Source: Bacilli bacterium | GTDB taxonomy: Bacteria > Bacillota_I > Bacilli_A > RF39 > UBA660 | DNA: 64,000 bases | Direction of reading: 5' to 3' | Assembly (NCBI GenBank): GCA_017418945.1 | Contig: JAFOMI010000040.1 | Coordinates: 32-64,031, forward strand | Part shown: positions 1-7,767 of the stretch, in pieces | Numbering within the stretch: position 1 is the stretch's first letter | Layout of the letters: every line of letters starts with the position of its first letter | Position numbers and translations under genes: made by a program | The notes under the pieces: model-generated | Database searches by the model: none | What the model saw: only the letters and a program-made list of their open reading frames with translations | Told to the model about the DNA's origin: nothing

Positions 1-25
1 TATGATAAAATAATATTGGAATTTG

Positions 26-51
26 AATTGGTCAGTTACAACTGACCAATT
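26..51. repeat. Perfect 10-bp inverted repeat with a 6-nt spacer (aattggtcag-ttacaa-ctgaccaatt)
   Basis: Read directly: 26-35 is the exact reverse complement of 42-51. No T-run follows, so it is more likely a protein-binding site or the stem of an upstream terminator than a classic intrinsic terminator. Confidence 0.45.
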
Positions 52-131
52 TAGAAATGAACAAATTAAAAATAATATGAAGTTAGAATATTATTTAGAT
101 TTTTTACTACAAATAAAAAGTTAATTTATAT

Positions 132-165
132 TTGTTAAAAATTATATATATTTAAATGGTATAAT
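132..165 (+). promoter_or_regulatory. Putative promoter of the 188-2133 operon (TTGTTA ... extended -10 TGgTATAAT)
   Basis: TGgTATAAT at 157-165 is a perfect extended -10, about 22 nt upstream of the ATG region. The -35-like TTGTTA at 132-137 has long spacing, so the -10 is the main evidence. Confidence 0.35.
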
Positions 166-187
166 TATAATTGGTTTAGGTGATGTT

Positions 188-1084
188 ATGTTAAGACAAT
201 TTAAAGGAATAAAATGGATAAATAATATTCCGAATTTTATTTTATATGATTATGAAAACAATATTATTGAATACAAAAAGGTTGAGGGAATTATAGATAT
301 AAAAAAAGAAGGTTTGAAAAAATGCAATGGGTATTATGATTTGGTTACACATAAATATGTTGTATGTCCAAATTTTAATAGTAGCGAATCAGATAATGTT
401 AAACAATGTGAAACATGTTCAAATATTACCGGATTTAATGAATGTCTTGGATGTGATGGTAAATATTGCAGAACTACTAATAGTATTGCAAAAGAATTTT
501 GTAATCAAAAACATGTTGTGTATATTGCTTTGTTTGGAAATAATAAATTTAAAGTTGGAACAGCAGCTGAATATAGAAAATATTCAAGAATACTTGAACA
601 AGGTGCTATAGCATCAATGTTTATTGCAGAAACACCAGATGGTAAACAGGCAAGATTTATAGAACATACAATATCAAAATTAGGATATGTACTTCAAGTG
701 AATTCATCGTTTAAATTGAAGAATTTAGTAATTGATAAGGATCGTATCGAAATTGAAAATATTTTAAAAAAACATTACAACAATATTATGAATGACATCC
801 CTGATGCTTTGAAAAAATTTTTAATTTCTCCCGAAATTAATTATTGTGAAAAAATTAATAAAATAAATAAAAGTATTTTTTCGGCAAATGATATGCAGTT
901 ATCTCTTCTTGAGGATAATATTGAAAACACATATGACATTAACTATTTGTTGCATTATGATAGTATATGTGGTAAAATAGCAAACGTTATTGGAACTTTT
1001 CTAGTAATAAAATCAAATAATGATTTTGTAATTTACGATACTAAAGAATTAGAGGGATGTATTGTAAAAATAAAATTAGGTTAG
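188..1084 (+). CDS. Cys-rich (zinc-ribbon-like) protein with a T5orf172/MUG113 GIY-YIG-like domain
   Basis: 298-aa ORF. Cysteine cluster CETC...CLGCDGKYC, followed by VYIALFGNNKFKVGTAAEYRKYSRILEQG and ARFIEHTISKLGY. This resembles the T5orf172 (GIY-YIG-like) pattern YKIGxT...RxxQL...AE..H..L. A 12-bp gap to the next ORF implies an operon. The domain call is from memory of the family consensus only. Confidence 0.5.
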   Translation: MLRQFKGIKWINNIPNFILYDYENNIIEYKKVEGIIDIKKEGLKKCNGYYDLVTHKYVVCPNFNSSESDNVKQCETCSNITGFNECLGCDGKYCRTTNSIAKEFCNQKHVVYIALFGNNKFKVGTAAEYRKYSRILEQGAIASMFIAETPDGKQARFIEHTISKLGYVLQVNSSFKLKNLVIDKDRIEIENILKKHYNNIMNDIPDALKKFLISPEINYCEKINKINKSIFSANDMQLSLLEDNIENTYDINYLLHYDSICGKIANVIGTFLVIKSNNDFVIYDTKELEGCIVKIKLG

Positions 1085-1095
1085 GGGAATTTTAA

Positions 1096-2133
1096 ATGTT
1101 TGATTATCACGGAATAGATTACAGTAGTATAGTTGATTTAGGTTATACAATGGCAACTTTTGAAAACCATTCGATGGGGCAATCACTTGAAAGATATATT
1201 GAAATGAAATTACAAGATATAATCTTTAGTGATTCAATATCAGAAATACGTGTTGTAGGTAATTATGATAGAACTAAAGGTATTTCTGTTAAAGAAAAAA
1301 ATGATAAAACTTTCAATTATAAGCGACCAACAGTTTTTGTGAATGGTGATGTTGCAACAATTAATTGTTATCCTGGTATGGATTATGTATATCATTATGC
1401 AAGTCTAGTAAAAACATATTTAGCTATATTAGGCATAAAAAAGAAAATTACAGTACAATTTCCTACAGTTCAACAAATTGAAAATCAATTAATGCGCTCT
1501 AATATAAATGAGATACCAAAATGTAAAACAGTAATATTAGGATATGTTCAAGGTTTTGAGTATTTGTCTAATACAGAAAATTGGCTTGGAACAGGAGATT
1601 TTTTGTGGAAGCAAATAACAGACGATAAAATATTAGTTGGTTGTAAGCATAGTTACTGGGGAGATATTGCTGGTTATATTGTTGCCGCATTAGCACGAAA
1701 AGGCGTAAAAAGAGTTATATATGTAGGAAAACTTGGAACATTAAACAAAAACTATGCACCAAATGAGACAATTGCTACAGGAAATAAAAGTATATTTATT
1801 GATGGTAGTTTTGTTGAATGGAATAATGTATTTGAAGATTTTAATTCTGATGCCATTAAGAATGGTATTCATTATACATTACCTAGTATAATTCAAGAAA
1901 CAAAAGAATGGGTTTTACAAAATAGAGAAGAAATTGCATTTGTTGATCCAGAAATTGGGCATATGGCTAAATCAGCAATGCAAAACGGAATTGATTATTC
2001 ATATTTACATATTATATCTGACAATTTATCAAAAAAATTCTCAGAAGACCTATCTAACGAAAGAAAAGAAGATGTCTTAATTAAAAGAAAAAAATTAATC
2101 AAGACAATAGGAAATTGCTTAATGGATATATAA
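1096..2133 (+). CDS. PNP/MTA-nucleosidase-fold (PNP_UDP_1-like) domain protein with an unassigned ~140-aa N-terminal region
   Basis: 345 aa. C-terminal half has ILVGCKHSYWGDIAGYIVAALARKGVKRVIYVGKLG, DPEIGHMAKSAMQNGI and LHIISDNL. These mirror the G-rich loop, the E..A motif and the terminal (I/V)SD motif of MTA/SAH nucleosidase and purine nucleoside phosphorylase fold proteins. The N-terminal ~140 aa was not recognised. Confidence 0.55.
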   Translation: MFDYHGIDYSSIVDLGYTMATFENHSMGQSLERYIEMKLQDIIFSDSISEIRVVGNYDRTKGISVKEKNDKTFNYKRPTVFVNGDVATINCYPGMDYVYHYASLVKTYLAILGIKKKITVQFPTVQQIENQLMRSNINEIPKCKTVILGYVQGFEYLSNTENWLGTGDFLWKQITDDKILVGCKHSYWGDIAGYIVAALARKGVKRVIYVGKLGTLNKNYAPNETIATGNKSIFIDGSFVEWNNVFEDFNSDAIKNGIHYTLPSIIQETKEWVLQNREEIAFVDPEIGHMAKSAMQNGIDYSYLHIISDNLSKKFSEDLSNERKEDVLIKRKKLIKTIGNCLMDI

Positions 2134-2136
2134 AAA

Positions 2137-2164
2137 CTGTGTATTTAAACACAGTTATTTTTTT
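2137..2164. terminator. Bidirectional intrinsic terminator between convergent genes
   Basis: Hairpin ctgtgt-atttaa-acacag (2137-2154) with an A-run before and T-run after. It sits between the + strand stop at 2133 and the - strand stop at 2145-2147. Confidence 0.5.
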
Positions 2165-2714
2165 CCATTACTAATTGAGGGTATCCTGCAAATATTTGTT
2201 TTCCAACTTTAATATTTAATTCTTCTATAGTATCCATAATATATTTCATACTATCATCCTCATTATCATATAAATTTGTTTTGAATTCTAATTCGATGAA
2301 ATCACCTAAATTTTCTATGGAATCAATTGATATAACAATATTATTATATTCGAATGAGTTTCTTTTTTTTTCAACAACTATTATTTGTTTGAAATCTAGT
2401 GCATCTAGCATTTCAATCATTCCGTTATAGTCATCTATTCCAATTTCAATTTCTTTACAAGAAATTTTATTATTACCATTATTATTACTCCAATTTTTGT
2501 AATTAATAGTTTTTTCTTCCTTTGTATCTCTTATTCTAAGCCATTCTGAAATAGGTTTTTTTTCAAGAAAATTCTCATGTGCTGGTGTATAATATATATC
2601 CTTTTGATAATTGTTTTCTTCAATTGTTTTACCTAATTCTTTTAATTTTGATATTGTTTCTTTTTTGTTATGTAAAGGAAATTTTGCTTCAATCTCAATT
2701 CTTTTTCTTTCCAT
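2145..2714 (-). CDS. CYTH-domain protein (class IV adenylyl cyclase CyaB / triphosphate-tunnel metalloenzyme family)
   Basis: N-terminal IEIEAKF matches the CYTH ExExK signature. The size (~189 aa from the internal start MERKRIEIEAKF, which has a GGAGG RBS; the ORF-track start at 2762 is less likely) is typical of CyaB-like proteins. Confidence 0.6.
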   Translation of the reverse strand: MERKRIEIEAKFPLHNKKETISKLKELGKTIEENNYQKDIYYTPAHENFLEKKPISEWLRIRDTKEEKTINYKNWSNNNGNNKISCKEIEIGIDDYNGMIEMLDALDFKQIIVVEKKRNSFEYNNIVISIDSIENLGDFIELEFKTNLYDNEDDSMKYIMDTIEELNIKVGKQIFAGYPQLVMEKNNCV

Positions 2715-2887
2715 ATCTTTACCTCCATATGAATTATATAATATTTTACTTTTTAAAGTCAATTAACTATAATCATAAATTCTAAAAATATATATTTGAA
2801 AAAAACTGTAATTAAAAAAATAAGATGTAATTAAATAGACTTGTATTTATTACTTCTAATTTCTTCAGTGCAGTTATTAAATTTAAC

Positions 2888-2975
2888 TTTTTTTGTTGCA
2901 ACTAACTAGATTTGTGGTAAATGTTCATACTGATATGTATTAATTCTTAATCGTTACTGAAAGTTGTAAATAATT
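2888..2975 (+). repeat. Copy A of a ~90-bp direct repeat carrying a sigma-A-type promoter plus conserved leader
   Basis: ttttttgTTGCAA-N16-TGgTAAATg followed by atactgatatgtattaattcttaatcgttactgaaagttgtaaataa. Aligns at about 85% identity with 3845-3943. It points into the 3' end of the convergent 2998-3822 gene. Confidence 0.6.
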
Positions 2976-2997
2976 ACTTGATTTATTTATAATATTA

Positions 2998-3822
2998 TTA
3001 TTGATATATTGCAATAGGAATTACAACAAATGCTGGACCCATTATTTTGTCTTTTATTTCTTTAGGATTGGACATATTTTTTTTAGATATCTGCCTTCTT
3101 TGTTCACGATTGATTGCCATTGATTTAACATCTTCAAATATTTCATCTAAGCATATACTATTTCCTTTTTCTATTTTCTTTTGAACTTTACATAGCATGT
3201 ATACTTGAGAAACAAAATTATCTTTAGATGTTTTTAAAAATGTTTTATCTATATTACCAATTAATGGATATTTTTTGTCTTCAAAGTTAAAAACACAGGA
3301 AAGTGAATTGTCATTTCTAGAATTAGATAACATTTGAAATCCATCTAAAGCCTCTTGTTCCTTTTCATCTATTATATTATTACCTAGAAAAGGTGCAAAT
3401 GCATCATATAGTTGTTTAAAACCATTTACAGCATTTGTTACTTCTTCTAATTTTGAAAAGCGTGGTGTTACTAAAACTTCAATAAAATCATCTCTATAAA
3501 TATTATCCCATATTTCTTGATTTATATTTTCATAATATTTTAATTCATCATTTTCTTTTAAATATTTAATTATTCTATCCAATTTACTTGCATCATTTAC
3601 TCTTGCATTTAATAATATTTTTTCTTCTTTTTGACTACCTAAGTTCCCTTCCATATTTGCTTTGGAAAATCCAACGCCTAGTTTTCCACCTTTATTAGTT
3701 GTTGAACTTTGTGTTATTTCTTGTTCTTCATAAATATATCCATCAATAATGGAAATATAATTGTCAAGTGCCTCAGTATCTGCATATAAAATTTTTCTAA
3801 GCATCTTTATCACCTCTGACAA
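2998..3822 (-). CDS. Hypothetical protein (274 aa) with a hydrophobic C-terminal tail (GPAFVVIPIAIYQ)
   Basis: Long ORF with an aggaGGTGAtaaagATG-type RBS upstream on the minus strand. No recognisable motif. Flanked by direct-repeat copies A and B. Confidence 0.6.
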   Translation of the reverse strand: MSEVIKMLRKILYADTEALDNYISIIDGYIYEEQEITQSSTTNKGGKLGVGFSKANMEGNLGSQKEEKILLNARVNDASKLDRIIKYLKENDELKYYENINQEIWDNIYRDDFIEVLVTPRFSKLEEVTNAVNGFKQLYDAFAPFLGNNIIDEKEQEALDGFQMLSNSRNDNSLSCVFNFEDKKYPLIGNIDKTFLKTSKDNFVSQVYMLCKVQKKIEKGNSICLDEIFEDVKSMAINREQRRQISKKNMSNPKEIKDKIMGPAFVVIPIAIYQ

Positions 3823-3844
3823 TATTCTATCATAAAATCAGCAC

Positions 3845-3952
3845 TTTTTTATTGCAATTAGTCAATTTTATGGTAAAATATTTATAGAGAATGATACTGA
3901 TATGTATTAATTCCTAATCGTGATGGAAAAGTTGTAAATAACTTAACCAATC
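3845..3952 (+). repeat. Copy B of the ~90-bp direct repeat (promoter plus conserved leader)
   Basis: ttttttaTTGCAA(3852-3857)-N16-TGgTAAAAT(3871-3879) followed by atgatactgatatgtattaattcctaatcgtgatggaaaagttgtaaataa. Same architecture as copy A. Confidence 0.6.
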
Positions 3953-3997
3953 GCTCCAGATTGATGAATAATACGAACTTATAGTTCGTTTTTTTTA
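3886..3997 (+). ncRNA. Candidate ~110-nt small RNA (promoter of repeat copy B to an intrinsic terminator)
   Basis: Near-consensus promoter (TTGCAA-16-TGgTAAAAT) with predicted TSS around 3886. Conserved leader, then hairpin acgaact-tat-agttcgt (3973-3989) plus T8 (3990-3997). No ORF with an RBS in between. The downstream CDS has its own RBS at 4041-4046. Confidence 0.4.
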
Positions 3998-4054
3998 TAC
4001 TTGAATAATAAGATTATGTTTGATAAAATATTTTTTATCAAGAGGGAAAACTAT

Positions 4055-4579
4055 ATGGGTTATTATAATAAAATGTTAGATTTATATTTTAAAGAAAAGA
4101 ATTATACAAAAGAAGAAATAGAAAAAATATTGGATGAAAATCCTTTTGATTCAAATTTTTCGCATTGGGAAAGTAATATATTATTTGAAGGTAAGTTATT
4201 TTCTAATTCTCTTAAGAAAAATGGAATTGTAGGTAGAGATGATTCTGTACAAGAATTAGTATTGTTTGATGAATTAGGTGTATGTAAGAATGTTACTAAT
4301 TATGTGGATTATATAAAGATAAATGATAATAATGTAAAAGGTACTAAAGTCGCTAAGAAAAAGGTAATATATAAAGGGCATTATGATGAAGAATATGAAT
4401 TTTTAAAATGCCTAGAATATAAAAGAATACCATTTGCTATTGGAATATGTACAAAAGATAAAGAATATTATAAAAGAATTTTAGAAATATATAAGTTTTA
4501 TTTATTAAAATTTAAAAATAGTAAAGTAATAGATGAAATAGATTATAATAGAGATATTTTAATATTTAAATCAAGATAA
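4055..4579 (+). CDS. Hypothetical protein (174 aa from the RBS-supported ATG)
   Basis: AGAGGG RBS 8 nt before the ATG at 4055 (MGYYNKMLDLYF...). The ORF track begins at a TTG at 4001 with no RBS. No recognisable domain. Confidence 0.55.
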   Translation: MGYYNKMLDLYFKEKNYTKEEIEKILDENPFDSNFSHWESNILFEGKLFSNSLKKNGIVGRDDSVQELVLFDELGVCKNVTNYVDYIKINDNNVKGTKVAKKKVIYKGHYDEEYEFLKCLEYKRIPFAIGICTKDKEYYKRILEIYKFYLLKFKNSKVIDEIDYNRDILIFKSR

Positions 4580-4640: not shown

Positions 4641-4715
4641 GCAAGTGTAGTACAATGGTTAGTACGAGGCCTTGCCAAGGCTTAGACGAGAGTTCGATTC
4701 TCTTCACTTGCTCCA
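4641..4715 (+). tRNA. tRNA-Gly (anticodon GCC)
   Basis: Cloverleaf folded by hand: acceptor gcaagtg/cacttgc, D-arm gtac-aatggtta-gtac, anticodon stem aggcc/ggctt with loop ttGCCaa, T-arm gagag-ttcgatt-ctctt, discriminator T and encoded CCA. Confidence 0.85.
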
Positions 4716-5557: not shown

Positions 5558-6907
5558 TTATTTTTTAATCTCACTATTTTTTAATGTTAAAGTCTTATTG
5601 TTATTTTTCATTTTTCCTTCATTATATAATTCTACTTCACTTACTAAGTCTAAAGGTTTATAATCTTTAATATTATTCTTTATTCTTTGAAGTTTTTCTT
5701 CTACATCACGAAGTGCGTAACTAAGACCTCTCATTTGTTTTTCTAGAGCAGGATTATTTGTATTTGAATTAAAGTATTTATCATCATGAAGAGCCCATGC
5801 ATCCATTACCATTGTTCTAACTATTACTTCCATTATAATAGGTTGAACATCATTTACCATAGGTATATTAAAGACTAAATTAATCTTATATCCTCTATAT
5901 CCAGATGGTTTTGGTTCAGCAAATCTATCACTTATACTTGTAATTTCTACATTATCCATTTTACCAATTTCTTGTTTAAATTGTTTTATAAAATCTAACG
6001 CAACTTTTTCATCTATACAAACTACTTTAAATCCAATAATATCGTGTATGTTTGTAATGATATCTTTAGCAGTACATGATAGTTTTCTCATTTTTAATTT
6101 TCTATTTATACTTGGTAAAGATTTTATTCTTGATGTTACATGAAGAATATCTCCTTTATTATCGTAATTTTTTATAAAAGTCTTTAAATCTTCATCAAAT
6201 TTATTATTTATGATTTGATAAAGGTGTCCTATTTTTTTATATTCTTCTTGTATTTTTTGTAATTCTTCATTACTTTGTTCTTCTTTATTAATACTTTCTT
6301 TTCTAATTAATTCATCTAATGCTTTATCATAGAAGAATAATTCATCACTAAGTTTTTTTAATTCATTTTTATCTTCTAAACTAGCATTACCTTTATAACT
6401 TAATTTATGTTCTTCTCTTGCGAATATATCCATGAATATAGTTCTTATTTGTATTTCTGCATAAACATAACTTATACCAGAAGATTTTTTTATTGGAACT
6501 TTTACAATAACGTGATATCCCATATATCCACTTTCTTTAGGGTCCTTGATATAATCTTTTATTTTTTCAATTTCAAAGTATTTAGTATTTTTTATTGTAT
6601 CAAGTACTTCTTTTGCATCAGTTAAGTTTAAACAAACTAATCTTACTCCAACAACATCACGTATATTATCGTAAGTTATATCTCTATTTTCTCTATTCAT
6701 TCTATCATTTATTTTATTTAAAAAACTATTTTCTTTTTTTATTCTTTCACTTTGATAGGCAACTTTATCTTTAATACCTTCGTTTTTTAATTTTTCCATT
6801 ATTTCTAAAAGATTATTTAAGGCATTAATATTATTTTCTTTTTCATATCTATAACGCACTAACTCTGATAATAGTTTTTCTTTTCTTTCATCAGTTAATG
6901 TAGCCAT
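5558..6907 (-). CDS. Tandem two-domain RelA/SpoT-family nucleotide pyrophosphokinase (duplicated small-alarmone-synthetase-like domains)
   Basis: Domain 1: DVVGVRLVC ... DYIKDPKESGYMGYH ... AEIQIRTIFMDIFAREEHKLSYK. Domain 2: DIIGFKVVC ... AEPKPSGYRGYK ... MEVIVRTMVMDAWALHDDKYF. Both match the RelQ/RelP synthetase motifs D..G.R, PK.SGY and (I/V)Q(I/V)RT..M..WA. Start taken at the RBS-supported MATLTDE (AGAGGG); the ORF track extends to 6991. Confidence 0.75.
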   Translation of the reverse strand: MATLTDERKEKLLSELVRYRYEKENNINALNNLLEIMEKLKNEGIKDKVAYQSERIKKENSFLNKINDRMNRENRDITYDNIRDVVGVRLVCLNLTDAKEVLDTIKNTKYFEIEKIKDYIKDPKESGYMGYHVIVKVPIKKSSGISYVYAEIQIRTIFMDIFAREEHKLSYKGNASLEDKNELKKLSDELFFYDKALDELIRKESINKEEQSNEELQKIQEEYKKIGHLYQIINNKFDEDLKTFIKNYDNKGDILHVTSRIKSLPSINRKLKMRKLSCTAKDIITNIHDIIGFKVVCIDEKVALDFIKQFKQEIGKMDNVEITSISDRFAEPKPSGYRGYKINLVFNIPMVNDVQPIIMEVIVRTMVMDAWALHDDKYFNSNTNNPALEKQMRGLSYALRDVEEKLQRIKNNIKDYKPLDLVSEVELYNEGKMKNNNKTLTLKNSEIKK

Positions 6908-6993
6908 TTTATCCCTCTTTTCGAAGTGAAGATAATATATCACTTTTTTGGTTAAAAAGCAAATTTTTAAAAAAAAGAAGTAAATTTTCATAT

Positions 6994-7767
6994 TTACTTC
7001 TTAATTATCTCTTTAACTTTTTGAACAGCACCTTGAGTATTTTTTTCTCCAAATGCTTGTAATACTTCGATTGGAATTGCAAATATTATTGTATTTGATT
7101 GATCTGATGATAAATCGTTTAAAGTAGCTAATGTTCTTAAATGTAATGCACCTGGTGAATTACTAAGTACATTAGCAGCTTTAGCTAAATTATCTGCAGC
7201 TTCTTTTTCACCTTTAGATTTAGTAATAACTGCTTCTTTTTCTCTTTCAGCTTCTGCAACTTTTGCAATAACTCTTTGCATTTCTTCTGGTAATTTAACA
7301 TCTTTTAATTCAACATTTTCAACTTTAATTCCCCAAGGATCAGTTGCTTCATCAATTACTTTACATATTTCAGTTGATATTTTATCTCTTTCTGATAATA
7401 ATTCATCTAGTGAAACAGCACCAACTGCATTTCTCATTGTAGTTTGTGCAAGTTGTCCAACAGCATATTGATATCTTTCAACAGCAAGAATTGCTTTAGA
7501 TGCATCAAATACTTTATAGTAAATAACTGCATTAATTCTAATAGATACATTATCTTTAGTAATTGCATCTTGTTCAGGAACATCAACTGCTTTTGTTCTT
7601 ATATCAACTTTTTTGTATGATTCTATGATAGGTAATACTAAATTCCAACCTGGTTTCATAATTCTTTTGAATTTACCAAATCTAAATTTAATACCTCTTT
7701 CATATTCAGATACTTGTCTTATTGATATAAGTATAATAAATATAATAATTCCTATAATAATTTTCAT
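6994..7767 (-). CDS. SPFH/band-7 (stomatin/prohibitin-like) membrane protein
   Basis: N-terminal TM helix, then the SPFH core (IRTKAVDVPEQDAITKDNVSIRINAVIYYKV ... WGIKVENVELKDVKLPEEMQ) and an A/E-rich coiled-coil tail. Confidence 0.85.
   Translation of the reverse strand: MKIIIGIIIFIILISIRQVSEYERGIKFRFGKFKRIMKPGWNLVLPIIESYKKVDIRTKAVDVPEQDAITKDNVSIRINAVIYYKVFDASKAILAVERYQYAVGQLAQTTMRNAVGAVSLDELLSERDKISTEICKVIDEATDPWGIKVENVELKDVKLPEEMQRVIAKVAEAEREKEAVITKSKGEKEAADNLAKAANVLSNSPGALHLRTLATLNDLSSDQSNTIIFAIPIEVLQAFGEKNTQGAVQKVKEIIKK

Follow-up and report, generated by a model that had tools for sequence, protein, structure and literature searches.

An unannotated NP-I-fold protein family in a three-gene module with DUF2797 and CYTH proteins: a candidate nucleotide-processing system

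The locus and its boundaries

The window analysed here, a stretch of 64,000 nucleotides from a member of the Bacilli (contig JAFOMI010000040.1), carries close to its left end two co-oriented genes that a first-pass annotation had singled out as a candidate undescribed two-gene module. Both open reading frames are present, encoding proteins of 298 (gene 1) and 345 (gene 2) amino acids (Table 1), and the peptides quoted from them (CETC...CLGCDGKYC, FKVGTAAEYRKYSRILEQ, ARFIEHTISKLGY, GDIAGYIVAALARKG, DPEIGHMAKSAMQNG and LHIISDNL) are found in their translations. The genes, which were said to lie 12 bp apart, are separated by 11 nt (1085-1095) that include a ribosome binding site for gene 2 (AGGGGA). 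The region is indeed tRNA-proximal, with tRNA-Gly(GCC) at 4641-4715, and, as had also been claimed, the genome has a separate canonical PNP_UDP_1 gene (22798/22846-23553, E 6e-29), which adjoins the gene for adenylosuccinate synthetase (purA).

The unit is, however, one of three genes rather than two, since a convergent gene for a CYTH (triphosphate tunnel metalloenzyme) protein belongs to it as well. The block from ~150 to 2770 is the sole DNA shared with five other loci (L006, L008, L009, L018 and L077; 69-96% identity, unrelated flanks), the order of the three genes recurs in L077-L079, and the two convergent genes share a terminator. Homology to other Bacillota loci begins at ~150-187. The CYTH gene is kept alongside the pair at L006-L009, L018 and L077-L079, and it accompanies genes 1 and 2 in six Bacillota genomes in which the flanks are unrelated. 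The common hairpin overlaps the last codons of the CYTH gene and was called on both strands in a terminator scan of positions 1-4000, which gave five sites against 0.5 expected. A further inverted repeat, upstream of gene 1, delimits the module on its left and probably serves the gene before it as terminator. Promoter-like elements precede both transcription units, and across the whole region such sites are in no excess over shuffled sequences. The mechanically called CYTH frame runs further, to a TTG at 2762, and the orthologues are 189 amino acids long. Window positions 150-2770 constitute a self-contained, horizontally mobile three-gene module.

Table 1 Features of the three-gene module and its surroundings (window coordinates)
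Feature	Position	Strand	Basis and remarks
Inverted repeat TTGGTCAGTT-ACA-ACTGACCAA	28..49	.	Upstream of module; read from sequence
Extended -10 promoter-like element TGGTATAAT	157..165	+	22 nt before gene 1 ATG; consensus match only
Gene 1 ribosome binding site AGGTGA	177-182	+	Read from sequence
Gene 1, DUF2797 family	188..1084	+	Pfam PF10977; AF2
Gene 2, NP-I-fold family	1096..2133	+	AF2 model; sub-threshold PNP_UDP_1
Bidirectional intrinsic-terminator hairpin	2135..2156	.	8-bp stem, T-runs on both strands; terminator scan
CYTH / triphosphate-tunnel-metalloenzyme gene	2145..2714	-	189 aa from ATG at 2714; GGAGG ribosome binding site
CYTH promoter-like site TTGACT-18-TATAAT	2733..2762	-	11/12 matches; consensus match only

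Gene 1 encodes a DUF2797 protein with a predicted GIY-YIG core

Gene 1 had been likened to the T5orf172/MUG113 group of GIY-YIG-like proteins. The T5orf172 identity does not hold, because the sole Pfam match at E<=1 is to DUF2797 (PF10977, E 5.2e-13; 49.8 bits against a cut-off of 25), with neither T5orf172 (PF10544) nor any GIY-YIG model detected. All 22 close homologues are likewise PF10977 proteins, and there are actinomycete relatives in addition. The suggested fold, on the other hand, is borne out by the predicted structure (AF2, pLDDT 90.7), in which a GIY-YIG-type beta-beta-alpha-beta-alpha core (residues ~109-165) is preceded by an N-terminal beta domain (1-58) and a four-cysteine Zn-ribbon (C46, C60, C74, C77; accompanied by a Firmicute-specific CxxCxxxxC motif), and is followed by a helical linker and a C-terminal beta domain (245-297). 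Sequence profiles of the protein gave no match to PDB sequences.

Residues that are invariant in two phyla comprise the four Zn-ribbon cysteines together with H109, Y112, K122, V123, G124, R130, R134, Q138, G139, E159 and K176. Of these, Y112 (strand 1), R130/R134 (helix 1) and E159 (helix 2) occupy the same secondary-structure elements as the catalytic Tyr, Arg and Glu of GIY-YIG nucleases such as SLX1, I-TevI, UvrC, T4 EndoII and PD-T4-3, the match being one of elements and not of superposed residues. The KVG of strand 2 corresponds to the 'KIG' of T5orf172-type proteins. SLX1 also resembles gene 1 in having an attached Zn-binding module, whereas gene 1 differs from these nucleases and from the T5orf172-MUG113 branch in belonging to DUF2797 by Pfam and in carrying its core between two small beta domains. 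The order of the motifs suggests that the core may be catalytically competent; no report of nuclease activity was found in the literature for any DUF2797 protein. Relatives of the family also pair with NUDIX proteins independently of gene 2 and, in one case, with a patatin.

Gene 2 founds an unannotated NP-I-fold family

Gene 2 founds an unannotated family with the NP-I (PNP/UDP/MTAN/AMN) fold. Its structure is predicted with high confidence (AF2, pLDDT 95.0, pTM 0.93), and the C-terminal region (~145-345) has the three-layer alpha/beta architecture of NP-I catalytic domains, with invariant K212, E268, D284, E286, H305, E322 and R323, and with D309 in an SDN motif. The N-terminal domain (~1-140) is unique to the family, having no Pfam match and no relationship to anything found; here K71, N74, R77, P78, Y97 and H100 are invariant. 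In all, 20 residues are invariant in 65 family sequences drawn from many phyla, and the homologues recovered comprise 171 clusters at 90% and 611 representatives of clusters at 50%.

The first-pass annotation had recognised a PNP fold in the C-terminal half of gene 2. The fold is upheld by the model, but gene 2 itself falls below the PNP_UDP_1 cut-off (PF01048; 14.2 bits, E 0.03, against 25.1). One family member, P0220, passes at 30.5 bits, so that homology to PNP_UDP_1 is supported through intermediates only. The order of motifs is that of the NP-I superfamily as represented by DeoD PNP, Udp, MtnN/MTAN and Amn, namely a GxxG-type loop (VGKLG), an acidic ribose-binding motif (DPEIG) and an SD(N) catalytic motif, and Amn likewise has an extra N-terminal domain. 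Identity to these enzymes is nevertheless only 10-16%, the N-terminal domain of gene 2 is distinguished by its invariant basic residues, and the genomic partners of the family are NUDIX, CYTH, HIT, kinase and DUF2797 genes and not salvage genes. The gene 2 profile matched no PDB sequence, and its hhalign comparisons with the window's PNP and with E. coli MTAN gave low-probability alignments only. The alignment with PNP, which places IISDN on VVDSH and DPEIG on AEMES, has a probability of only 0.2%; at that same low probability, the position of the phosphate-binding Arg of PNP is taken by Tyr/Phe in the gene 2 family and that of Ser90 by an invariant Lys.

Position 309, which the same 0.2% alignment sets against the catalytic Asp of PNP, varies with genomic context. 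It is Asp in 41/65 sequences, including the window clade, and Asn in the other 24/65, among them 17/17 members linked to DpdA3 and 5/5 linked to NDT. The closest NCBIfam model is HpnG, at E 0.26 and far below its cut-off; together with the variable flanks and the lack of housekeeping synteny, this shows that the protein is not an ordinary MTA/SAH nucleosidase or futalosine hydrolase, in agreement with the earlier view that housekeeping purine salvage is unlikely to be its task.

CYTH and other polyphosphate hydrolases as partners

The third protein of the module is a clear CYTH member (PF01928, E 9.3e-25) with the N-terminal ExExK motif intact (EIEAK, residues 6-10). Among solved sequences it is nearest to the triphosphate tunnel metalloenzyme SaTTM Saci_0718 (E 1.6e-10), class IV cyclases following at 1e-4 to 2e-5. 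It also exceeds the cut-off of the NCBIfam model for 'class IV adenylate cyclase' (TIGR00318; 102.5 bits against 57.95), so that a cyclase or signalling role is possible.

A census of partners was taken over 73 loci, using counts from seeded jackhmmer searches, which replaced single-linkage clustering because of shadow open reading frames in high-GC genomes. DUF2797 is found in 36 loci, a dTMP-kinase-like (TMK-like) protein in 33, NUDIX in 22, HIT in 15, CYTH in nine and NDT in five. The pairing of genes 1 and 2 proves co-conserved, as the earlier proposal requires: their 36/73 joint loci span two phyla, three gene orders and three separate clades. The three types of polyphosphate hydrolase (CYTH, NUDIX and HIT) are almost mutually exclusive and jointly account for ~50 loci. 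In Streptococcus and Patescibacteria the CYTH gene points the same way as gene 2. Fusions provide a further link: NUDIX precedes gene 2 in a single polypeptide in five genomes and in P0172, and follows it in P0238, and P0182 is a gene 2-CYTH fusion, in which the CYTH match is weak (Pfam E 6.5e-4) and E286 and D309 are lost from the gene 2 domain. About 23/73 loci have none of these partners, and some of them pair gene 2 with membrane proteins. On the gene 2 tree, the types of context follow the clades.

Several candidate associations were discarded. The genes that precede the gene 2 homologue in Nostoc, Streptococcus and an ICE are not related to gene 1 and encode a membrane protein, a Pol-beta NTase and a multi-TM protein. 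Apparent gene 2-TMK-DUF2797 fusions in L057/L058 are frameshift or assembly artefacts, the pieces lying in other frames, and the label 'RHS repeat-associated core domain' on a Klebsiella match belongs to a truncated copy amid IS elements and not to an RHS toxin tip.

The CYTH, NUDIX and HIT superfamilies each include members that process RNA ends. The module could accordingly be read as a system that processes RNA 5' ends or cap-like structures or that repairs RNA, in which CYTH would be an RNA triphosphatase-like enzyme, NUDIX an RppH/decapping-like one, HIT a DcpS/aprataxin-like one and the P-loop kinases polynucleotide-kinase-like, working with a GIY-YIG RNA/DNA endonuclease while gene 2 removes a terminal base. 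Some NUDIX domains do have Nudt16-like matches, a HIT protein has a DcpS_C match and a Streptomyces plasmid carries a 2'-5' RNA ligase family gene. All of these domain matches are weak, however, the kinases score best as dTMP-kinase-like, and we know of no NP-I enzyme that acts on polymer ends, which makes this reading extremely unlikely.

Distribution and genomic context

The gene 2 family is present in at least 69/185,579 species genomes, its hosts including gut Bacillota MAGs, Patescibacteria, Babeliales and Bdellovibrio-like bacteria. Copies reside on a conjugative element and on plasmids, IS elements flank some of them, and those in L026, L045 and L070 are fragmented and likely pseudogenes. 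Relatives of genes 1 and 2 are absent from ~50,700 phage genomes searched with both the window and the actinomycete versions, which sets the module apart from phage pathways.

Because many of the hosts are reduced-genome or host-associated bacteria, salvage or sanitation deserves consideration: a nuclease, an NTP/NMP hydrolase and an NMP nucleosidase would act in turn, recovering bases, which may be 7-deazaguanines of the queuine/preQ type or other purines, from the products of nucleic-acid breakdown or destroying non-canonical nucleotides. Fusions with NUDIX and NDT/DNPH1-like genes as neighbours are characteristic of nucleotide sanitation, the family is linked to 7-deazaguanine genes (see below), and in L077-L079 the triad sits amid housekeeping genes. 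General salvage would call for a much commoner and less patchy family, though, and the window already has a canonical PNP beside purA; a Zn-ribbon GIY-YIG protein would be an odd salvage nuclease, and the NMP kinases of the same operons work in the opposite direction. We consider this role decidedly unlikely.

Other versions are reminiscent of small-molecule biosynthesis, with gene 2 forming or exchanging the glycosidic bond of an unusual base in a nucleoside antibiotic or peptide-nucleotide conjugate. The Streptococcus operon has the order Rgg - CPBP protease - ABC transporters - PqqD - CYTH - Pol-beta NTase - gene 2 - PK barrel - TMK-like, and a Klebsiella plasmid has gene 2-like - DMT exporter - NUDIX - DegT aminotransferase. 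A 'DUF6415 natural product biosynthesis protein' adjoins Streptomyces clusters and L023 includes an MFS transporter. Against this, no transporter, tailoring enzyme or regulator accompanies the window triad, a part for a GIY-YIG nuclease fold in biosynthesis is hard to see, and the DpdA3-like transglycosylase of the actinomycete loci suggests a nucleic acid rather than a free metabolite; such a function is very unlikely.

Is the module an anti-phage system?

The first-pass annotation had proposed nucleotide depletion of the abortive-infection type. In its fullest form this would make gene 2 an infection-triggered purine NTP (ATP/dATP) nucleosidase like Cap17/DtcC, with CYTH clearing ribose-5'-triphosphate or making a signal and DUF2797 acting as sensor or nuclease effector. 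There is precedent in the PNP-domain ATP nucleosidases of immunity, Cap17 of CBASS and DtcC of Detocs, which PF01048 detects and which group in a single clade (Rousset et al., 2023; 10.1101/2023.01.24.525353). Like these, gene 2 is predicted to have a C-terminal PNP-fold domain in a two-domain protein and is extra to a housekeeping PNP, and their product, ribose-5'-triphosphate, would suit a CYTH or NUDIX partner as substrate. The rarity, patchiness and mobility of the family, as well as its fragmented copies, also fit, as do Asp309, shared with adenine-accepting NP-I enzymes, the pairing of a DUF2797 relative with patatin, a common defence effector, and that of gene 2 with membrane proteins in cyanobacteria and an ICE. 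Some PADLOC matches occur in triad flanks, and the window has a PDC-S33-like gene at a distance of 2.8 kb.

Nonetheless, none of the tests run (PADLOC, PF01048 clade, flanks and operon context) supported the proposal. No PADLOC model matches gene 2 at E<=1, and gene 1 has only a marginal match to SIR2 (E 0.008). Gene 2 is not PF01048-detectable and stands outside the PF01048-defined immune clade. No receiver, cyclic-nucleotide-binding or other sensor domain is recognisable in its N-terminal part, which has no Pfam match; this N-terminal domain is always present and its conservation is among the highest in the protein, whereas Cap17-type sensor domains are modular and swappable. In place of a CD-NTase, a histidine kinase or a Detocs kinase/Hpt operon, its neighbours are DUF2797 and CYTH. 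The triad flanks are mixed, with mostly ribosomal, tRNA-synthetase and cell-division genes and a few defence-like matches. The locus is syntenic in at least 12 Nocardiopsis species, and in 33 loci the operon includes anabolic NMP kinases. Half of the loci are operons with NMP kinases and the 7-deazaguanine pathway, and so do not agree with simple nucleotide depletion. An abortive-infection role is thus unlikely, though possible for the Bacillota triad, which lacks a kinase.

A link to 7-deazaguanine DNA modification

In 19 actinomycete and plasmid loci the gene 2 homologue lies inside a 7-deazaguanine DNA-modification cluster, with the order FolE-QueD-QueE-DpdA3-like-gene 2-TMK-DUF2797-MTase-NUDIX; DUF2797 was detected in 15 of them, and some of the clusters are on plasmids, including Streptomyces plasmids. 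The DpdA3-like gene was recognised by its similarity to phage DNA guanine transglycosylases (E 7e-15), and its protein profile gave no match to PDB sequences. The transglycosylases matched are those of DpdA3 phages; DpdA3 has been described from phages, and its reconstitution in E. coli failed (PMC10516641).

The composition of these sets recalls, in logic and not by homology, the hydroxymethylcytosine pathway of phage T4. The four slots filled there by EndoII, dCTPase, dCMP hydroxymethylase and dNMP kinase recur around gene 2 as a GIY-YIG nuclease fold, an NTP pyrophosphatase, an NMP-level base enzyme and an NMP kinase, and in the 19 actinomycete and plasmid loci this set is contiguous with DpdA3-type modification. 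The window module differs in having no kinase, DpdA or Que gene within the 64 kb, which renders extrapolation from the actinomycete cluster indirect; a DpdA-family transglycosylase and FolE/QueD/QueE are likewise absent from the window and the Bacillota loci. One reading of the whole, which we would call improbable, is that the gene 2 family, DUF2797, a polyphosphate hydrolase and the dTMP-kinase-like protein form a toolkit interconverting canonical purine and 7-deazaguanine nucleotides, from which the Bacillota triad would have been derived as an independent system that degrades purine nucleotides and cleaves nucleic acid.

A putative nucleotide-processing module

The reading that we favour, tentatively and at slightly less than even confidence, is that the module combines an enzyme acting on the N-glycosidic bond of nucleotides with a polyphosphate hydrolase and a nuclease-fold protein. 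Folds, gene linkage, fusions, boundaries and residue conservation are observed or computed; for substrates, direction of reaction and biological role, the following scheme can be proposed. The CYTH tunnel enzyme would have as its substrate either the polyphosphate chain of a purine nucleoside triphosphate or the sugar-triphosphate product, a role that NUDIX or HIT enzymes may take in other lineages. The gene 2 protein would break or exchange the N-glycosidic bond of a nucleotide whose phosphate moiety is probably held by the conserved basic N-terminal domain, with the invariant D284/E286 pair taking part in catalysis and D309 serving as acid. The DUF2797 protein would act on nucleic acid, either to supply nucleotides or to cut DNA or RNA of particular base composition.

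By analogy, the wider family may be a set of tools that rewrites the nucleotide pool or cleans it, made up of pyrophosphatase, NMP-level base enzyme, NMP kinase and GIY-YIG nuclease, which in Actinomycetota would be attached to the DpdA3-type pathway. The window version, having neither kinase nor base-synthesis genes, may retain the degradative half only, which, given Asp at position 309, would act on ordinary purine nucleotides. The literature on DUF2797, on CYTH/GIY-YIG/nucleosidase sets and on 7-deazaguanine/kinase/Nudix anti-phage systems yielded no description of this gene arrangement, in keeping with the first-pass annotation's view of it as unreported, and the module is thus an undescribed variant.

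These findings add to the PNP/MTAN superfamily an unannotated branch with a confident structure model, an N-terminal domain of its own and repeated genomic links that extend to fusions, and they give DUF2797 its first fold assignment (GIY-YIG, predicted) and first functional context. They also place DpdA3-like clusters in actinomycete chromosomes and Streptomyces plasmids, always with a gene 2 homologue and usually with DUF2797 alongside, and both proteins are concrete candidates for the factors missing from the E. coli reconstitution of DpdA3. Were the interconversion toolkit real, its members would be the 'other enzymes' without which DpdA3-type systems do not replace G in DNA completely, and the kinase-less triad of gut Bacillota would be a new kind of anti-phage (or anti-modified-DNA) defence. 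If the stand-alone triad does prove defensive, it would represent a new nucleotide-targeting immune architecture.

A conserved three-gene block

Both ORFs that the first-pass annotation had placed in the window were found at its positions, all of the peptide strings that it quoted occur in the translations, and the nearby tRNA gene and the canonical PNP that it reported are also present, the latter adjoining an adenylosuccinate synthetase gene. Gene 1 (DUF2797 family) and gene 2 (NP-I fold, PNP/MTAN-type) are real genes. The 11-nt spacer between them contains an AGGGGA ribosome-binding site, and the G+C content of the region is ~24%. Gene 1 has 22 close homologues, with PF10977 in 22/22, and gene 2 homologues form 171 clusters at 90%, with 611 cluster representatives at 50% among 1.84 billion. 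The pairing of the two genes proposed earlier holds, but the size of the unit does not, since a convergent CYTH gene makes it three. A single block is the only DNA that the window has in common with five other Bacillota genomes, the flanks being unrelated, and this block comprises exactly DUF2797, gene 2 and CYTH. The same triad is found at loci L077-L079 of other genomes.

Features of the window in and around the triad, with the canonical PNP gene
Feature	Position	Strand	Remarks
DNA shared with five Bacillota genomes	~150-2770		69-96% identity
Gene 1 (DUF2797)	188-1084	+	298 aa
Gene 2 (NP-I fold)	1096-2133	+	345 aa
Bidirectional terminator hairpin	2135-2156		Common to gene 2 and CYTH
CYTH gene	Probable start ATG at 2714		Converges on gene 2; 189 aa, like orthologues; GGAGG ahead of start
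CYTH promoter match	2762-2733		11/12 consensus positions
DUF6414 gene	2998-3822	-	E 4.9e-39; within 2925-3903
Bidirectional terminator-like hairpin	3973-3989		
192-aa ORF	4001-4579	+	No family match; absent from L006; between hairpin and tRNA gene
tRNA-Gly(GCC)	4641-4715		
RelA/SpoT gene	5558-6991	-	477 aa; two RelA/SpoT domains (Pfam 2.3e-37; PADLOC PDC-S33 9.5e-34; weak 2CompARG)
Band_7/SPFH gene	6994-7767	-	1.7e-41
Canonical PNP_UDP_1 gene	near 22.8 kb		E 6e-29

Beside the triad, comparison with locus L006, which is 96% identical, shows the DUF6414 gene to be an indel: homology ends at 2924 and restarts at 3904, so that the gene is strain-variable cargo. A copy at L007 (662-3230), 95-97% identical to the window, is without window positions 957-1206, so that gene 1 and gene 2 form one 588-aa ORF; this deletion/fusion is either natural or an artefact of MAG assembly. 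Further along the window, the RelA/SpoT gene lies directly downstream of the Band_7/SPFH gene, and the two are a candidate alarmone-type defence pair.

Folds and conserved residues

Gene 1 matches Pfam DUF2797 (PF10977) above threshold (E 5e-13), and this is the sole Pfam match at E<=1, so that the earlier assignment to T5orf172 falls away. The accompanying suggestion of a GIY-YIG-like protein fares better in part. AF2 gives a confident model (pLDDT 90.7), and in an alignment of Bacillota and Actinomycetota the Zn-ribbon cysteines C46, C60, C74 and C77 are invariant, while Y112, K122-V-G124, R130, R134 and E159 are also kept. The kept residues map to strand 1, strand 2, helix 1 and helix 2 of the model, an order that appears to be the canonical one of GIY-YIG catalytic residues. 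No function is stated for DUF2797 in the accessible literature.

Gene 2 is without a significant family match: Pfam PNP_UDP_1 reaches only E 0.03, and NCBIfam and PADLOC gave nothing useful. Its AF2 model is excellent (pLDDT 95, pTM 0.93), and one family member, P0220, exceeds the PF01048 threshold. No relative could be detected for the domain made up of the N-terminal ~140 residues. In 65 sequences sampled from every clade, 20 residues never vary; among these, K71, N74, R77, Y97 and H100 belong to the N-domain, and K212, E268, D284, E286, H305, E322 and R323 to the catalytic domain. In a weak profile alignment with the window's own PNP, the phosphate loop is tentatively matched by VGKLG, the ribose-binding (E)ME motif by DPEIG and the catalytic-Asp motif by IISDN. 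Position 309 is Asn in 17/17 DpdA3-linked members and in 5/5 linked to a nucleoside-2-deoxyribosyltransferase-like (NDT) gene; members in the window's clade, in Streptococcus and Nocardiopsis and in the NUDIX fusions have Asp instead. In NP-I enzymes Asp at this site (D204 of DeoD, D197 of MTAN) acts as general acid on N7 and accepts adenine, and Asn (N243 of mammalian PNP) goes with 6-oxopurines. Given these established roles, the Asp/Asn switch at 309 looks like a context-tied change of base specificity.

Possibly interchangeable partners across the family

A pattern scan with one genome per species found at least 69 gene 2 loci in Bacillota, Cyanobacteria, Actinomycetota, Planctomycetota, Patescibacteria, Babeliales and Bdellovibrio-like bacteria, among others. 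Partners were counted by seeded profile searches and Pfam among ORFs within 6 kb at 73 non-redundant loci. DUF2797 is present at 36/73, on the same strand and in three gene orders, and a dTMP-kinase-like (TMK-like) P-loop kinase at 33/73. NUDIX occurs at 22 of the 73 (fused to the gene 2 N-terminus in five, 7 nt downstream in one), HIT at 15, CYTH at nine and NDT at five. These last four are almost mutually exclusive and jointly cover ~50 of the loci, the pattern that interchangeable partners for one step would produce. When the gene 2 domains are placed in a neighbour-joining tree, context types group as clades, the DUF2797-linked members forming three separate ones.

An exhaustive search added NUDIX-gene 2 (P0172), gene 2-NUDIX (P0238) and gene 2-CYTH (P0182) fusions. 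CYTH is co-directional with gene 2 in a Streptococcus operon and lies 20 bp upstream of it in a Patescibacterium; in P0182 it is the C-terminal part (Pfam E 6.5e-4; BLASTP against the window's CYTH 3e-6), a link that counts as weak support because the gene 2 domain there has lost both E286 and D309. Other family fusions carry an N-terminal aldo/keto reductase (2.3e-36) or C-terminal ankyrin repeats (P0163, P0152).

The Streptococcus orisasini / Streptococcus sp. operon (L002 1900-10811; L016) is longer, in the order Rgg, CPBP protease, ABC transporter genes, PqqD, CYTH, Pol-beta nucleotidyltransferase, gene 2 homologue, pyruvate-kinase barrel and TMK-like kinase, and resembles a cluster under quorum control whose product would be a peptide-nucleotide or an unusual NTP. 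On a Klebsiella pneumoniae IncFIB plasmid (NZ_CP055107.1; L081 6007-9493), TA modules and IS elements surround an operon that begins with the gene for a distant gene 2-like protein (356 aa, 26% identity) and also contains DMT transporter, NUDIX and DegT aminotransferase genes. A truncated copy on another plasmid (L080 5947-6837) carries the annotation 'RHS repeat-associated core domain-containing protein', which is probably mistaken. Two divergent DUF2797 relatives have no gene 2 after them: one (L075 7001-9120; 40% identity) precedes a patatin phospholipase gene, and the other (L086 219-1543; 32% identity) a NUDIX gene.

Anabolic kinases in the same operon at 33 loci, synteny of the locus in at least 12 Nocardiopsis species and flanks made up mainly of ribosomal, tRNA-synthetase, RuvB, FtsW and ComEC genes all argue against the abortive-infection role first proposed for the module. 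We consider that role unlikely, even though the family is rare and patchy, with copies on a conjugative element and on plasmids, others flanked by IS elements or fragmented and probably pseudogenised, and a DUF2797 relative is paired with patatin. The window does have a PDC-S33-like gene 2.8 kb away, and there are some PADLOC matches in the flanks, but no PADLOC model fits gene 2 and gene 1 gives only a marginal SIR2 match (E 0.008). Moreover, the gene 2 N-domain is constant rather than modular, and gene 2 falls outside the PF01048-based immune ATP-nucleosidase clade (Rousset et al., 10.1101/2023.01.24.525353).

Actinomycete DNA-modification clusters

The gene order FolE-QueD-QueE-(~278 aa unknown)-gene 2-TMK-like-DUF2797-SAM methyltransferase-NUDIX is seen in 19 actinomycete loci and on Streptomyces plasmids. 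DUF2797 was detected in 15/19 loci; two or three of the remainder are truncated contigs. The ~278-aa gene overlaps the gene 2 start, and its product is homologous to the phage 'DNA guanine transglycosylase' of Flavobacterium phage immuto (E 7e-15, 97% of length), Cellulophaga phiST (7e-10) and Campylobacter CP220 (3e-4). The DpdA3 subfamily, which was described from phages only, is defined by these phages and has been linked to DNA in which 7-deazaguanines replace G completely; its reconstitution in E. coli was unsuccessful, and the authors proposed that additional enzymes might be needed (PMC10516641). QueC is missing from the actinomycete cluster, as it is from the CP220 pathway, and the cluster therefore stops at CDG.

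The DpdA3-like genes with FolE/QueD/QueE lie in actinomycete chromosomes and Streptomyces plasmids (L028-L058; L073; L082 4277-11628, NZ_CP107821.1; L084 9370-16091, NZ_CP020040.1). The Streptomyces cluster of NZ_CP107821.1 spans 67.3-74.1 kb of that record. Portal and major-capsid genes, together with a gene for a 5,247-aa helicase, are present on one Streptomyces plasmid, which may therefore be a phage-plasmid; another cluster copy adjoins a tyrosine recombinase gene.

A proposed nucleotide-level pathway

The analysis establishes the folds, the linkage and fusions of the genes, the limits of the unit and the conservation of residues; the pathway built on them is a proposal. The account that we tentatively favour, at somewhat less than an even chance, is that gene 2 would act on a nucleotide, not a nucleoside, and would cleave or exchange its N-glycosidic bond, because the gene 2 N-domain is basic and the partners of gene 2 all act on phosphate chains. 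Polyphosphate would be handled by CYTH, NUDIX or HIT, the kinase, where present, would re-phosphorylate an NMP, and DUF2797 would act on nucleic acid. The four slots around gene 2 follow the same logic as the T4 hmC pathway, with its GIY-YIG EndoII, dCTPase, dNMP-level base enzyme and dNMP kinase. Having Asp309, and with no kinase, DpdA or Que genes found anywhere in the 64 kb, the triad of the window would carry out only the degradative half, on ordinary purine nucleotides. Salvage or sanitation is improbable, small-molecule biosynthesis more doubtful still, and a role in RNA-end processing highly improbable.

No account of the gene 2 family or its gene arrangement was found in the searchable literature. 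Neither the fold nor the chemistry of the gene 2/DUF2797 module is new; the module represents an undescribed branch within two known superfamilies, in a gene set that is unreported and has been re-assembled repeatedly. DUF2797 thereby gains a fold and a context, and gene 2 and its cluster partners are nominated as candidates for the missing DpdA3 co-factors.
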